From Klebsiella phage fENko-Kae01, in the sequence record OR228459.1: a DNA stretch of 64,000 nucleotides. The stretch is one strand, 5' to 3'. This document shows positions 11,411 through 44,613 of the stretch, one piece after another; within the stretch, counting starts at the first letter, position 1; each line of letters opens with the position of its first letter. The notes under the pieces were generated by a model. The model was not told the origin of the DNA and ran no database searches. It worked only from the letters and a program-made list of their open reading frames with translations. The position numbers and the translations under genes are program-made.

Positions 11411-11607
11411 AAAAAGAACCTGTTTACGAACAGAAACTTTATTGTCCTCAATGTAAGAATGTGTACCAGTACAGAACGAATGAATGTGAAGTCTGTGGCT
11501 TCGCTATTCACAATCATTTTTGGGTCGATGAACGGTTTAAGGAATTACGCTCTTTCCGTGCTATCCGCTCAATGGAAAAATACATGGAAAATATGAGGAA
11601 CGAATGA
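11407..11607 (+). CDS. zinc-ribbon small protein
   Basis: CPQC..CEVCG. Confidence 0.45.
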   Translation: MKKEPVYEQKLYCPQCKNVYQYRTNECEVCGFAIHNHFWVDERFKELRSFRAIRSMEKYMENMRNE

Positions 11608-11984
11608 ATATTACAGAACAAATGAAAACCATCCCATTTTTAAGTACTCGTATCTTCATTGAGGATGGTTATGAAAAAACTGTGAGTATTATCGCTTACC
11701 GTGATAGTGAAGATTCACCATATAGTAATATTATTGCATGTCCACAATGCAATGGTATTGGTGCAATGGTAACTCTATTCACGAATGGTTGCATGGTCAA
11801 GTTAGATATGAATAAACTAATAATCACTGTTAACATTCCCGGTGATGAACCGTCTATTGCAACCTTTCCTCTTAATGTTGATGAGGGTGGCTTTTTCCAA
11901 GAAACAGTACTTCATGATTTCAAGGATATTACGTTCGAGCACCTAAAGGCTGTTCGTGATGTAGTGGAACTATATAATGACTAA
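11604..11984 (+). CDS. small protein, FQxS-motif paralog family member (zinc ribbon CPQCNGIG)
   Basis: C-terminal GGFFQETVLHDF. Confidence 0.5.
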   Translation: MNITEQMKTIPFLSTRIFIEDGYEKTVSIIAYRDSEDSPYSNIIACPQCNGIGAMVTLFTNGCMVKLDMNKLIITVNIPGDEPSIATFPLNVDEGGFFQETVLHDFKDITFEHLKAVRDVVELYND

Positions 11985-12411
11985 TTCTGAAAAGTTAAAC
12001 AAGATGTTGTATACATTCTTTTTAGCTGATGATGGGATTTACAATGAAGAACGTATCTTTTCTTACATGTCTTGTAATGCAACGAGATCAAAAGAATCAT
12101 TTGACACATTCTATTATATGGATGCAAGATGTTCATTGAATTTTGATTGTATTGAGGGTGTATTCAATAAGTTAATACTTTATCCTGATAGTTATAATTC
12201 AGACGTACCATTTTTGAGTATTGATAGGGATGGTATGATTATTGGTGGTTGTGCAGGTAATGATAAAGATCTTTTCTTTTATAAAGATTGCATTCCTACC
12301 AGTACTGAATTAAAGAAAATTGGTATGAATTGCGAAACATTGGATTTACTTAATTTCATATTGATTAAATTCAAACCAATCATGGATAGGATACAGAAGA
12401 AATTTAAATAA
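11977..12411 (+). CDS. hypothetical protein
   Basis: ORF 144 aa. Confidence 0.5.
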   Translation: MTNSEKLNKMLYTFFLADDGIYNEERIFSYMSCNATRSKESFDTFYYMDARCSLNFDCIEGVFNKLILYPDSYNSDVPFLSIDRDGMIIGGCAGNDKDLFFYKDCIPTSTELKKIGMNCETLDLLNFILIKFKPIMDRIQKKFK

Positions 12412-12414
12412 ATC

Positions 12415-12446
12415 TTGGGACAAACTAGGATTTATGTGATATAATA
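12415..12446 (+). promoter_or_regulatory. conserved phage promoter TTGGGACAAA-N13-TGTGATATAAT
   Basis: copy 2; precedes tRNA. Confidence 0.6.
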
Positions 12447-12453
12447 TAATTAC

Positions 12454-12544
12454 GGAAGGTTGGCAGAGCTGGTTGAACGCAACGGTCTACTAAACCGTCA
12501 TACGCGAAAGCGTATCGTGGGTTCGAATCCCACACCTTCCACCA
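12454..12544 (+). tRNA. class-II tRNA (Ser-like), anticodon loop CTACTAA (apparent anticodon ACU, unusual)
   Basis: acceptor ggaaggt/accttcc, T-arm gtgggttcgaatcccac, long variable arm, encoded CCA. Confidence 0.7.
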
Positions 12545-12562
12545 TTTTAAAACGAGGTTTAT

Positions 12563-41655: not shown

Positions 41656-41662
41656 GGTGAAT

Positions 41663-41905
41663 ATGAAAACCGATAAAGCTATTGAAAAGATGCGTCGTAA
41701 TAAGCGTAATTGGACTATCCCTAAACTGAAAGTAATCGCCGCACGTTGTGGTATTTCGTGCGTGTCGAATGGCAGTACTCATCACGTTTTCAGGTTAGAG
41801 GGTGTTGTAGAACATTTGTCAATTCCATTCAATGGTAAGGACATTCACCCTGATTATATAACTAAATTTCTACGCCTAATAGATAAGGCAACAGGAGAGA
41901 AGTAA
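41663..41905 (+). CDS. hypothetical basic protein
   Basis: RBS gaggtgaat. Confidence 0.45.
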   Translation: MKTDKAIEKMRRNKRNWTIPKLKVIAARCGISCVSNGSTHHVFRLEGVVEHLSIPFNGKDIHPDYITKFLRLIDKATGEK

Positions 41906-43140
41906 TGATTTCTGAATACATGGCAATGTTTTCAAAAATGATGAATGACTATCCGTGGATGATGGGTCTTTATTCATTATATGGAATGGCAGTAATAACG
42001 TATCTAACAAAATTCATTCCTAAGATTTGGAACTTTATCTACAGTCAAAGTATTACAACATTAGAATTGAATAATGCTGGTTGGTCTGGAAATGAAGCTC
42101 ACTTTTTGGCATTTATGGAATGGTACTTAAAAAGTCCATATGCTAAGTGGTCACGCTATCTTTCACTAGATGGTAAATTTCACAGATGGGAAGATGATGA
42201 ACCTACGAATAAAACTTATGTAATTGGTGCTGGTTATGGTACACACTTCTTCTTTTACAAGAAGCGTCTATTTTGGTTCTCTAAAGGAACATTACAAAGT
42301 TCGGGTTCGGAGAAAGAAAAACAAAATATTGTAATTAAAACACTAGGACGCACACAGAAACCATTAGTAGATTTAGTTGCTGATTTTGCAGTTAAACCTA
42401 AAGAAACTGATATTAGTATCTTTAACTATAAAGATGATTGGGAACAGATTTCATCAGTAACTAAACGTCCACTATCATCAGTAATTCTACGTAAAGATAT
42501 TAAAGATGAATTGGTTGGAAATCTTGAGTACTTCTATGCTAATCGTGAATGGTACGTGTCACGTGGTCTAGCATATAAACAAACTTATATCCTACACGGT
42601 TTACCCGGTACAGGTAAAAGTAGTACTATCAAAGCACTAGCATCACACTTCAAAAAGAATATCTGTATCATTGATATTACTACAATGAGTAACATGGCAT
42701 TCGAAAAAGCAATGGCATCCGTTCCTCGTGGTTCAATCGTTCTAATCGAAGATTTTGATTCGTGTCGTGCATTACATTCACGTGAAGATAGTGAAGATAA
42801 TACAAATGGGATGGCTGAATTGGTCGAAGTACTCTCACTATCTAAAGTACTAAATGTTCTTGATGGTGTAGTTAGTCTAGATGATACTGTGGTATTTTTG
42901 ACCACCAACCACCTAGAGAAGATTGACGCTGCAATGACACGTAAAGGCCGGGTTGATTATTGCATCGAGATTCCACACCTAGAAGATGCAGAAGTGAAAG
43001 AATATATTCATCTTATGTATCCAGATAAAGAAATTCCACAAAAAACATTTGACACCATCGCGGGTTGTGATATACAATCTCTTTACCTCGAACATAAAGA
43101 AGATTTCAACAGCTTCATTGGAAGTCTAAAGGAGAAATAA
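41905..43140 (+). CDS. AAA+ ATPase, BCS1-like
   Basis: N-terminal TM; Walker A ILHGLPGTGKSS; Walker B IVLIEDFD; sensor/arginine-finger region. Confidence 0.7.
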   Translation: MISEYMAMFSKMMNDYPWMMGLYSLYGMAVITYLTKFIPKIWNFIYSQSITTLELNNAGWSGNEAHFLAFMEWYLKSPYAKWSRYLSLDGKFHRWEDDEPTNKTYVIGAGYGTHFFFYKKRLFWFSKGTLQSSGSEKEKQNIVIKTLGRTQKPLVDLVADFAVKPKETDISIFNYKDDWEQISSVTKRPLSSVILRKDIKDELVGNLEYFYANREWYVSRGLAYKQTYILHGLPGTGKSSTIKALASHFKKNICIIDITTMSNMAFEKAMASVPRGSIVLIEDFDSCRALHSREDSEDNTNGMAELVEVLSLSKVLNVLDGVVSLDDTVVFLTTNHLEKIDAAMTRKGRVDYCIEIPHLEDAEVKEYIHLMYPDKEIPQKTFDTIAGCDIQSLYLEHKEDFNSFIGSLKEK

Positions 43141-43550
43141 TGGCTGAACTTAAACTCAAGTTGCGTGAGCGTTGGGTTAATGTTAGCGATAATACGGTAA
43201 TTCAAAGTCTCGTCACTGAGGAAACTATTCACATTGATGATGACTTAGATTTTGAAGAAATGGCACATTATTATATGTGCCTCCGTGTTGGGTCGAGTAT
43301 TGTAGATGGTGTCCGTCATGAAGTTTCAGTTTATGACGGTTCATTGACAAAAGAAGAAATGTTTGATTTCATTCTAAACAATACAGTAACATTATCTCCT
43401 GATGGATCTACTTGGAAGAAACATAATGAAGACGGTACTGAAGAAAAAGTAGTACTGAAATATAATGTATCAATTAATGGCTGTAGTATGAGTGGTTATG
43501 ATTTAGAAGATGCTATTAATCACTACGTTAAGGAGATTCAAAATAAATGA
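43140..43550 (+). CDS. hypothetical protein
   Basis: ATG overlaps TAA. Confidence 0.5.
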   Translation: MAELKLKLRERWVNVSDNTVIQSLVTEETIHIDDDLDFEEMAHYYMCLRVGSSIVDGVRHEVSVYDGSLTKEEMFDFILNNTVTLSPDGSTWKKHNEDGTEEKVVLKYNVSINGCSMSGYDLEDAINHYVKEIQNK

Positions 43551-43870
43551 TTTCAGTAATGTGTGTAATTTGTGCTACTATCGTAATTTGTACTTTTATT
43601 AAGTACCGTTGCATTTGGAAATGTCAGCAACAAGAATACAAATTATATCGTGAGAAAAACAAGAAATCACCGTTTGTTATTCGTCCACATTTATATAAGC
43701 ATCCACATGATGCATCTAAACATTATTGGGGTTATGTAGTATTCAATACTGACACTGACCACCCATATACTGGCATTGATAAAAACAATACATCTTTTAC
43801 TGTATATCGCGAAAAGGCCGATGCAGATAAGCGTCGTAAAGAATTGGATGAATTATATGAATACAATTGA
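43547..43870 (+). CDS. hypothetical protein
   Basis: N-terminal hydrophobic segment. Confidence 0.45.
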   Translation: MISVMCVICATIVICTFIKYRCIWKCQQQEYKLYREKNKKSPFVIRPHLYKHPHDASKHYWGYVVFNTDTDHPYTGIDKNNTSFTVYREKADADKRRKELDELYEYN

Positions 43871-44048
43871 TTATAATGATGCCATAAAATTGATGGAGAA
43901 ATTCATCAATACTTACAAAGTAAAAGGAAAATTAAAAGGGTATTCTTATTCATTCAGTTCACGTAAGATAGAATTACGAGACAATAGTACTTCCGAATCT
44001 GTTATTATATGCAACGATCGTCTGATATATGTACAATCAATAACCTGA
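43857..44048 (+). CDS. hypothetical protein
   Basis: ATG 43857. Confidence 0.4.
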   Translation: MNTIDYNDAIKLMEKFINTYKVKGKLKGYSYSFSSRKIELRDNSTSESVIICNDRLIYVQSIT

Positions 44049-44214
44049 TTCAAAACTACATCCTTTAAACGTTACTTATGTGAAGAAGAATGTTTTCAGG
44101 ATTCTTGTATTGGTGAAGTCGGTTGCGATGAAAAGATGGAGTTGCTTATCAAAGAATGTGTTGACGTGTACTACCAAAGTGTGATAAACTCGCTTAACAT
44201 AGGTGGTTGGGTTG

Positions 44215-44613
44215 ATGAGTGAAAATGTTGTTAATCGTAATAAACTATTAGAACGAGGTTTAATGTTGATAGTTGGTGCTACTATGTCATTAGAAGATAC
44301 TGGTAGTACTGGTCAATACCTCGTGAAAATGGGTACAATGAAGTTAGTACTATCTAGAAACTTTACAGAGGTTGCTATTTCAAAACACTATGTAACTATT
44401 AGATGGATGAGTGAAAGTATTGTATTAAGTCGGGCAACATCAGAAGAAGATTATTTTCAGAAGATGTGTCTTGATGATTCGTATTGTGATGAAGAGTACG
44501 AAAAAGGTATTAAAGAATTTTTTGATTTATATATGAAATCCTTGTATCGCAATTTTGCAATAGGGGGTTTCCTAGAAGGTGCTTATGCAGAAGATATCGA
44601 AAACGATCAGTAA
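44215..44613 (+). CDS. FQxS-motif paralog family member
   Basis: SEEDYFQKMCLDDS. Confidence 0.5.
   Translation: MSENVVNRNKLLERGLMLIVGATMSLEDTGSTGQYLVKMGTMKLVLSRNFTEVAISKHYVTIRWMSESIVLSRATSEEDYFQKMCLDDSYCDEEYEKGIKEFFDLYMKSLYRNFAIGGFLEGAYAEDIENDQ

Follow-up and report, generated by a model that had tools for sequence, protein, structure and literature searches.

A lineage-specific superfamily of small acidic proteins in RaK2-like jumbo phages and its possible role in host takeover

The question raised by the window analysed here, a 64,000-nucleotide stretch of the genome of Klebsiella phage fENko-Kae01 (sequence record OR228459.1), is why so many of its short open reading frames (ORFs) carry, near the C-terminus, variants of one acidic motif typified by EEEYFQQSTV, and what a phage might do with the proteins that they encode. 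A first-pass annotation had proposed a single expanded paralog family. The window comes from a RaK2-like jumbo myovirus: in a megablast search, positions 30000-40000 match the Salmonella jumbo phages SE_PL, 7t3, Munch and PHA46 at 96-97% identity and 93-99% query cover, and the genomes of all four measure ~340-350 kilobases (kb). Up to 45.8 kb almost every gene lies on the plus strand, is short and is called "hypothetical" across these relatives, with ten transfer RNA (tRNA) genes in between. We find that the window holds at least 15, and probably 18, copies of one small acidic protein that have diverged strongly from each other: 15 are solid members, one is a pseudogene (43857-44223), and 39393-39896 and 7291-7845 are unproven candidates. 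The family is genuine and has not been described before.

One family behind a short motif

All 14 ORFs that the first-pass annotation had assigned to the family translate as it described. A strict regular expression for the motif is matched by 10 of the 152 plus-strand ORFs of the window and by 0 of the 93 on the minus strand, and over 500 shuffles of the proteome the mean number of matching ORFs was 0.04 (maximum 2). Pairwise BLAST among the window ORFs returned only short, weak matches around the motif, and homology was therefore tested by profiles. In a leave-one-out test the profile of the other 11 core members recovered the one left out in all 12 cases (E <= 0.011 in a set of 245 ORFs), usually across ~90 residues; when profile searches were iterated on the window plus decoys made by shuffling and reversal, the set settled at 15 members, the decoys beginning at E ~0.03. 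When the profile was made solely from relatives outside the window, collected by means of the window profile, 14 of the window's ORFs obtained E values of 1.9e-25 to 1.6e-6 and the ORF at 32569-33066 obtained 0.0086, with decoys beginning at ~0.026. In hhalign, 14 members reached a probability of at least 94.8% against the family profile, and 32569-33066 reached 61%. By profiles and hhalign the homology of these 15 window ORFs spans ~90-130 residues. The similarity thus reaches well past a short motif that is itself far more frequent than chance would allow, as expected of one paralog family. The members and candidates are as follows, with lengths in amino acids (aa) and hhalign probabilities against the family profile.

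11604-11984 (+): member, 126 aa, DEGGFFQETVL; relatives-only E 9.3e-12, hhalign 95.7%, leave-one-out E 6.6e-4
16494-16919 (+): member, 141 aa, SECDLFQLSTV; E 1.6e-22, hhalign 98.4%, matches the regular expression; 16494 is the start annotated in relatives, the ORF opening at 16455
16966-17424 (+): member, 152 aa, SEEQFFQESLV; relatives-only E 3.4e-13, hhalign 95.5%
17411-17959 (+): member, 182 aa, DEAMHFMESTM; E 4.9e-18, hhalign 97.9%, phrog_22160
19473-19964 (+): member, 163 aa, TEEEYFQLSTL; relatives-only E 1.9e-25, hhalign 99%
29761-30267 (+): solid member, 168 aa, degenerate motif NEDERFQAELL; relatives-only E 6.3e-12, hhalign 94.8%
31117-31476 (+): member, 119 aa, SEEEYFQQSTV; relatives-only E 1.6e-16
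32569-33066 (+): weakest solid member, 165 aa, TEEEIFQLSCT; relatives-only E 0.0086, hhalign 61%, leave-one-out E 0.011
33047-33454 (+): member, 135 aa, GTG start, SQEDEFQQSTA; relatives-only E 1.6e-6, hhalign 96.2%
36413-36904 (+): member, 163 aa, DDGEFFQENTV; relatives-only E 3.5e-17, hhalign 97.3%
36901-37383 (+): member, 160 aa, SEEEYFMQSTV; relatives-only E 6.7e-10, hhalign 97.1%
37665-38150 (+): member, 161 aa, SEEEHFQKDCL; relatives-only E 1.6e-19, hhalign 97.8%
38147-38593 (+): member, 148 aa, TEEVFFQFSTI; relatives-only E 5.4e-14, hhalign 97.9%
38987-39409 (+): member, 140 aa, SEEELFQQSII; relatives-only E 8.1e-11, hhalign 96.3%
44215-44613 (+): member, 132 aa, SEEDYFQKMCL; relatives-only E 7.8e-11, hhalign 94.9%
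43857-44223 (+): probable pseudogene, ORF opening at 43776, single in-frame TGA at 44046-44048, CEEECFQDSCI 3' of the stop; from DNA alignment to 7t3
39393-39896 (+): candidate only, 167 aa, DEGYHFQMEAT at the expected position; E 0.011 and 0.005, hhalign 0.3%
7291-7845 (+): candidate only, 184 aa (ORF opening at 7252), LEEKIFQMSTV; matches the regular expression, E 0.028, hhalign 1.8%, phrog_23860

Thirteen of the ORFs listed in the first-pass annotation are thus members, and its roster was incomplete, having missed 16494-16919, 17411-17959 and the broken 43857-44223. Of the two ORFs that it had set apart as weaker relatives, 29761-30267 is solid, and 39393-39896 stays unproven. The latter (E 0.005-0.04 across profile tests) and 7291-7845, whose motif stands 33 residues from the C-terminus and which lies outside the coordinates first considered, both have a motif-like sequence in the right place, yet score no better than decoys with the relatives-only profile and hhalign. 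The weakest solid member, 32569-33066, reached E 1e-5 in a scan made with 7t3. The in-frame TGA in 43776-44223 probably marks a recent pseudogene, or else read-through or a sequencing issue; the intact 7t3 orthologue scores E 4.8e-9 and 1.3e-8 in two profile scans. Five further ORFs tried as motif-less remote members (11977-12411, 16109-16501, 41245-41655, 44579-44914 and 30303-30617) did not rise above decoys by hidden Markov model or hhalign, and an antisense ORF at 4059-4301 (-) encoding 80 aa with CEFFQQSLIEH scores like shuffled decoys and is probably a chance occurrence.

Some of the descriptive details first given for the family need revision. Its proteins measure 119-182 aa rather than 125-175, the invariant Phe stands 25-52 residues from the C-terminus, and 71 in one member, rather than 25-35, and the W-x-x-Y/F pattern once noted near the N-terminus occurs in 0 of the 15 members. 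The proteins are soluble and mostly acidic, with a median isoelectric point (pI) of 4.67 against 5.55 for the products of neighbouring genes and net charges of -3 to -20, except for 17411-17959, which ends in a basic C-terminal tail and has a pI of 9.3.

It could be argued that what looks like a protein family is an effect at the level of DNA or of chance, a repeated nucleotide element or a bias towards AGTACT being read as protein. AGTACT is indeed strongly over-represented in the genome, and three members encode the S-T of the motif as AGTACT. Against this, the motif codons differ synonymously between paralogs (TTT/TTC, CAA/CAG, GAA/GAG, AGT/AGC/TCC), so that selection must act on the protein; the similarity runs over ~100 residues; the minus-strand and shuffled controls described above are all but empty; and the AGTACT excess is even over the window and present in all three codon phases. 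We regard this explanation as refuted. The palindrome, a ScaI site, is by base composition the most over-represented hexamer of the whole window (1-64000), with 154 copies against 21 expected (for example at 1015, 12301, 33341 and 58991); within genes 145 copies stand against 33 +/- 5.6 when synonymous codons are shuffled (at most 50 over 200 shuffles), and their codon phases divide 60/28/57. The recurrence of AGTACTG had been put down to the Q-S-T codons of the motif, which account for only 3 of its 90 matches; that attribution is refuted. The excess of AGTACT is 5.5- to 21-fold in all related loci examined (Munch, 7t3, CBB, IMG/VR contigs and two metagenome contigs) and looks like clade-wide selection at the DNA level; a literature search on AGTACT over-representation in phages gave nothing relevant. 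Two related palindromes, CGTACG and GGTACC, have 0 copies each in the window against ~6 predicted from base composition by our own estimate. AGT, which makes up half of AGTACT, is also the most frequent Ser codon of the window (371 of 1224), and would be read by the tRNA-Ser with anticodon ACT called by ARAGORN at 12454-12544 (+).

Modelled fold and regional conservation

If the members are homologous, what has been kept among them? Mutually they are 13-25% identical and recognisable by profile only, and in an alignment of 90 sequences the mean column identity of the family is only 11%. Against this background stands the signature [ST]-E-E-E-[YFLH]-F-Q-x-S-[TLC]-[VIL]-x-D, followed by a hydrophobic pattern, in which [ST] is kept in 86% of sequences, E91 in 93%, the next Glu in 82%, the Phe in 100% (90/90), Q96 in 91%, S98 in 82% and the Asp in 69%, the third acidic position taking Glu or Asp.

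An AlphaFold2 model of 31117-31476, built from the 90-sequence alignment (predicted local distance difference test, pLDDT, 87.7; predicted template modelling score, pTM, 0.79), has a helix at residues 3-20, five antiparallel strands (26-86), a helix at 91-100 that consists of the motif EEEYFQQSTV and a helix at 107-118, with block-mean pLDDT of 93-97 over residues 81-100. A model of 19473-19964 from a shallower alignment (pLDDT 66) has the same order of elements with extra strands, and BFVD models of homologues from GAP32 superpose at template modelling (TM) scores of 0.82-0.85. The common fold that had been proposed is therefore supported by two modelled paralogs, and is predicted to comprise an N-terminal helix, an antiparallel beta-meander of five or more strands and two C-terminal helices. 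Identity is distributed very unevenly over it: in the 31117-like subfamily helix 1 is 27% identical, the sheet 15% and the two C-terminal helices 52%, and over the whole family the corresponding values are 11%, 12% and 31%. The sheet and the N-terminal helix have almost wholly diverged. This pattern, taken with the modelled helix, places the motif in the first C-terminal helix as part of the sole conserved structural module, which it forms with the second helix, and not in a free linear tag. It also makes the suggestion that the motif serves as a degradation tag unlikely, because in the models the motif is a confident helix with an invariant Phe and no disordered terminus. Within this helix, [ST]-E-E-E at its start fits the [ST]-x-x-E pattern of a helix N-cap, and a helical-wheel reading suggests that F95, T/L99 and L103 form a hydrophobic stripe, with positions 97 and 101 variable and presumably exposed; the conserved polar residues are E91, E92, Q96, S98 and D102, which may either be buried or make up a common surface.

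Such a module invites the idea that the helical hairpin is a common docking surface through which all members meet one hub (phage Clp proteins, the host RNA polymerase or ribosome, or other members), acting as adaptors or as substrates of timed turnover. In its favour, the only conserved module is alike in all paralogs of one genome, and 7t3 is annotated with ClpA-like (7t3_0431), ClpP-like (7t3_0283) and ClpS-like (7t3_0522) proteins, to which CDS_264 of fENko-Kae01 may be added, so that a phage-borne Clp proteolysis system is possible. These Clp identities are annotation-level assignments, however, and a motif lying in a confident helix, with an invariant and probably buried Phe, is unlike known terminal degrons; we rate docking to a hub as rather unlikely. 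More speculative still, and somewhat less probable in our view, is a combinatorial adaptor system in which the hairpin would be the universal plug of ~40 paralogs to one hub and each sheet would capture a different host protein, routing host or defence factors to one fate.

Comparison with known proteins yields no relative. Foldseek against the PDB gave no match below E 0.01 (TM <= 0.39) and a profile search of PDB sequences gave none; in Pfam, NCBIfam and PADLOC no model reached its cut-off, and no family was matched by more than one of the 90 members. In PHROGs the superfamily is split over at least 26 groups of unannotated function (phrog_17453, 24941, 24321, 34619, 23322, 30111, 38195, 27549 and at least 18 more), some of whose profiles are common to different paralogs. 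For the p32/gC1qBP/MAM33 fold, neither a MAM33 profile match nor a clear superposition of the seven-stranded sheet or trimer was obtained. The coat protein fold of the Leviviricetes scores low, has no sequence relation to the family, and nothing points to RNA binding or capsid formation; coat proteins of that class start with a beta-hairpin, whereas the N-terminus of the family is a helix. The literature search found no description of the family. The earlier suggestion of one scaffold in many versions accordingly stands as far as the conservation pattern goes (52% identity in the C-terminal helices against 15% in the sheet), but no link to a known effector was found.

Spread, selection and turnover

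Searched with the profile, a set of 1.84 billion representative proteins yielded 84 clusters at E <= 1e-3, of which 83 contain proteins of 89-192 aa, nearly all with the motif, the remaining one being a spurious 3131-aa protein. A tblastn search combined with a DNA-pattern scan located the family almost only in phage genomes of 345-366 kb, including those of GAP32, CBB and the PBECO4 type, and in the related loci the members are densely packed, with up to 12 in 9.7 kb. The family is present in every RaK2-like genome sampled and is thus a lineage-specific superfamily of RaK2-like jumbo phages (121Q, PBECO4, GAP32, CBB, Munch, 7t3).

An iterated census of the whole 7t3 genome counted 37 ORFs below E 1e-3, a level that no decoy reached, and 42 below E 0.01, to be compared with 607 annotated features, tRNAs included. 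Twenty members lie in the arm equivalent to the window, 13 in a tandem array at 84.5-111.6 kb, two singly (145,227 and 157,080), and a pair at 177.9-178.7 kb sits beside genes annotated as RaiA, tRNA nucleotidyltransferase, NUDIX hydrolase and a macro-domain protein; this pair came to light through a tblastn search with the consensus C-terminal module, which lacked the sensitivity needed for a census. The array (84,541-99,396 and 106,003-111,646) comprises ~35 plus-strand genes for proteins of 134-243 aa, and ~24 of the 35 carry [ED][ED]-x-x-F-Q-x-S-[TL] in longer proteins of 134-220 aa. Its link to the window family appears only partly established: compared profile to profile, the two match confidently across 16 motif columns only, and, taken singly, ten of its proteins align with the family profile (E < 0.01, 52-115 positions). 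In 121Q an uncharacterised array exceeding 30 genes has been reported, to which the 7t3 array may correspond.

For 121Q and phage G, arrays exceeding 30 similar genes are on record (PMC5646251), and phage G has been reported to carry ~35 copies of a zinc-ribbon protein (PMC7824862). Other expansions are catalogued in the survey of jumbo phages by Iyer et al., and a 2026 review only restates what Hua et al. say of the 121Q array. The family described here resembles these tandem expansions in that one family is multiplied in one giant genome, often in tandem and on one strand, 121Q also being RaK2-like. It differs in that the published accounts define neither a motif nor a fold nor a family, and in that the genes of the 121Q and G arrays are called "very similar", whereas the members in the window are 13-25% identical and scattered among tRNAs and unrelated genes.

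Between fENko-Kae01 and Munch, the pooled ratio of nonsynonymous to synonymous substitution rates (dN/dS) comes to 0.16 in the family, compared with 0.147 in 66 genes nearby; the members are therefore coding and constrained, and the family ORFs are genuine, translated paralogs under purifying selection. Their turnover runs instead through gene content, by gain, loss and replacement between near-identical phages. At the site of 31117, just after a tRNA-Ser, Munch carries a paralog that is only 31.6% identical between flanking genes that are 95-100% identical, a cassette-like replacement; 38987-39409 is only 87.9% identical to its Munch orthologue; and a ~3.9-kb block of Munch and 7t3, missing here between 21199 and 21312, holds in Munch a tRNA-Arg and nine genes, four of them extra members of the family. 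Also missing from the window, between 38895 and 38987, is a gene for an HNH endonuclease, which follows tRNA-Leu in Munch and apparently in 7t3.

These observations bear on the main alternative explanation of the family, namely that it is a scaffold with no common theme: tandem-duplicated DNA tolerated in a phage with a large capsid, the motif being a folding nucleus and the roles of the members miscellaneous or dispensable. Single members are gained, lost, replaced and inactivated between phages ~96% identical, the dN/dS ratio equals that of the neighbouring genes, 7t3 has a ~35-gene tandem array with the same motif, and tandem duplication has been proposed by Hua et al. as a route of genome growth in jumbo phages (PMC5646251). 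An [ST]-x-x-E followed by the stripe of F95, T/L99 and L103 is also what a typical helix N-cap and core would look like. Yet the conservation of Q96, S98 and E91, set against the 11% mean, goes beyond the usual demands of a fold, all retained copies are under purifying selection, and the family persists in every RaK2-like genome sampled. We consider this explanation unlikely overall, while taking it as a serious contender.

Expression context and possible function

What, then, might the proteins do? A first indication comes from the element GGGACAA-N10-ATGTGATATAAT, which occurs in 10 copies, all on the plus (coding) strand, against 0.04 expected, and which is promoter-like, resembling a sigma-70 extended -10 promoter form with an odd -35 hexamer; its promoter function is putative. 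It often precedes tRNA genes and stretches that hold family members.

8706-8734 (+): copy of the element
12417-12445 (+): copy of the element
14745-14773 (+): copy upstream of tRNA-Thr and of a same-strand gene stretch with members 16494-19964
21223-21251 (+): copy of the element
28587-28615 (+): copy of the element
30245-30273 (+): copy of the element
30604-30632 (+): copy upstream of tRNA-Ser, tRNA-Tyr and member 31117-31476
34168-34196 (+): copy of the element
38600-38628 (+): copy upstream of tRNA-Leu, 38987-39409 and 39393-39896
55903-55931 (+): copy of the element

A Shine-Dalgarno-like sequence precedes 11 of the 18 starts. The syntenic region of phage CBB, CBB_390-546, has RpoD-like promoters and has been proposed to be an early, host-takeover region (PMC5259590); it contains the family member CBB_451, located just after tRNA-Tyr and tRNA-Ser, as is 31117 in the window.

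A second indication comes from the proteome of fENko-Kae01. When a >300 kDa retentate was analysed by liquid chromatography-tandem mass spectrometry (LC-MS/MS; PMC11218385 Table S3), 0 of 15 coding sequences (CDS) of the family were detected against 17 of 70 neighbours (Fisher p = 0.025). The comparison covers CDS_371-455, with the CDS putatively matched to our ORFs through 17 ordered length matches and the name ENKO_426; this protein belongs to a 90% cluster whose representative shows 100% identity to the protein encoded at 31117-31476. The absence of the window members from this lysate-derived proteome also speaks for docking to a hub, as discussed above.

Paralogous families of internal proteins occur in large myoviruses, for example the internal proteins of T4 and the inner-body paralogs of phiKZ, and T4-type prohead proteases cut after Glu, the T4 rule being L/I-x-E. 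It is therefore conceivable that the members are packaged in the virion as internal or ejected proteins, with the acidic motif as a capsid-targeting or prohead-protease site. The proteomic comparison argues against this, as does the absence of CBB_451 from the CBB virion protein list. Moreover, the genes lie among tRNAs behind sigma-70-like promoter-like elements, outside the late structural module; the motif is internal and helical, and the residues ahead of its Glu run misfit the T4 rule; and no conserved N-terminal segment is found in the family alignments. A virion role thus seems very improbable.

The reading that we favour, although we would give it only an even chance, sees the members as a set of diversified binding proteins, absent from the virion and probably early, that would serve host takeover or counter-defence. 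The genes would be transcribed early by the host RNA polymerase from the repeated extended -10 promoter-like elements, and in the cytoplasm of the infected cell their products would serve as a collection of binders or inhibitors, in which the conserved helical hairpin might provide the folding core or one common contact and the hypervariable face of the sheet might be directed to different targets. In this they would resemble the early proteins of T4, T5 and T7, the DNA mimics Ocr and Arn and the anti-CRISPRs, which are likewise small and acidic: the family has promoter-like elements upstream, lies in a probable early arm, was not detected in the particle or large-complex proteome and varies in content between related phages. 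The analogy is one of context only, since it is accompanied by no homology or fold match.

Several points weigh against this reading. The sequence and fold searches revealed no sequence or fold likeness to a known takeover, anti-defence or immunity protein. The dN/dS ratio against Munch is not raised relative to the neighbouring genes and gives no sign of a short-term arms race. The case for early expression is drawn from promoter-like sequences and from the proposal made for CBB. Non-detection in a >300 kDa retentate is equally expected for any small soluble protein, and one probable distant member of the superfamily or array, fENko-Kae01 CDS_077, which length and gene order suggest to be the match of 7t3_0234, was in fact detected by LC-MS/MS, so that at least one superfamily protein is probably made.

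The annotated genes that surround the family offer some further context. These are an ADP-ribosylglycohydrolase at 9346-10311 (+); a gene at 15203-16042 (+) on which annotations disagree (peptidyl-tRNA hydrolase in Munch, serine protease in 7t3); a gene annotated as peptidyl-tRNA-hydrolase at 17842-18288 (+); and one at 41905-43140 (+), whose 411-aa product is annotated in Munch as "mitochondrial chaperone". Together with the tRNAs and the genes beside the 178-kb pair of 7t3, such annotations are a hint that the family's surroundings have to do with translation and ADP-ribose.

RaK2-like jumbo phages carry hundreds of genes for unannotated proteins, and with the present analysis one block of these becomes a single superfamily with a signature, a fold model and a division into conserved and variable parts, where Pfam and NCBIfam have no family and PHROGs breaks it into fragments. 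If its members are dispensable duplicates, they are a record of how giant phage genomes grow. If they are host-directed binders, they would offer a wealth of new inhibitors against enterobacterial proteins or defence systems, in phages of a kind, such as fENko-Kae01, JP4 and UE-S1, that is under consideration for therapy.

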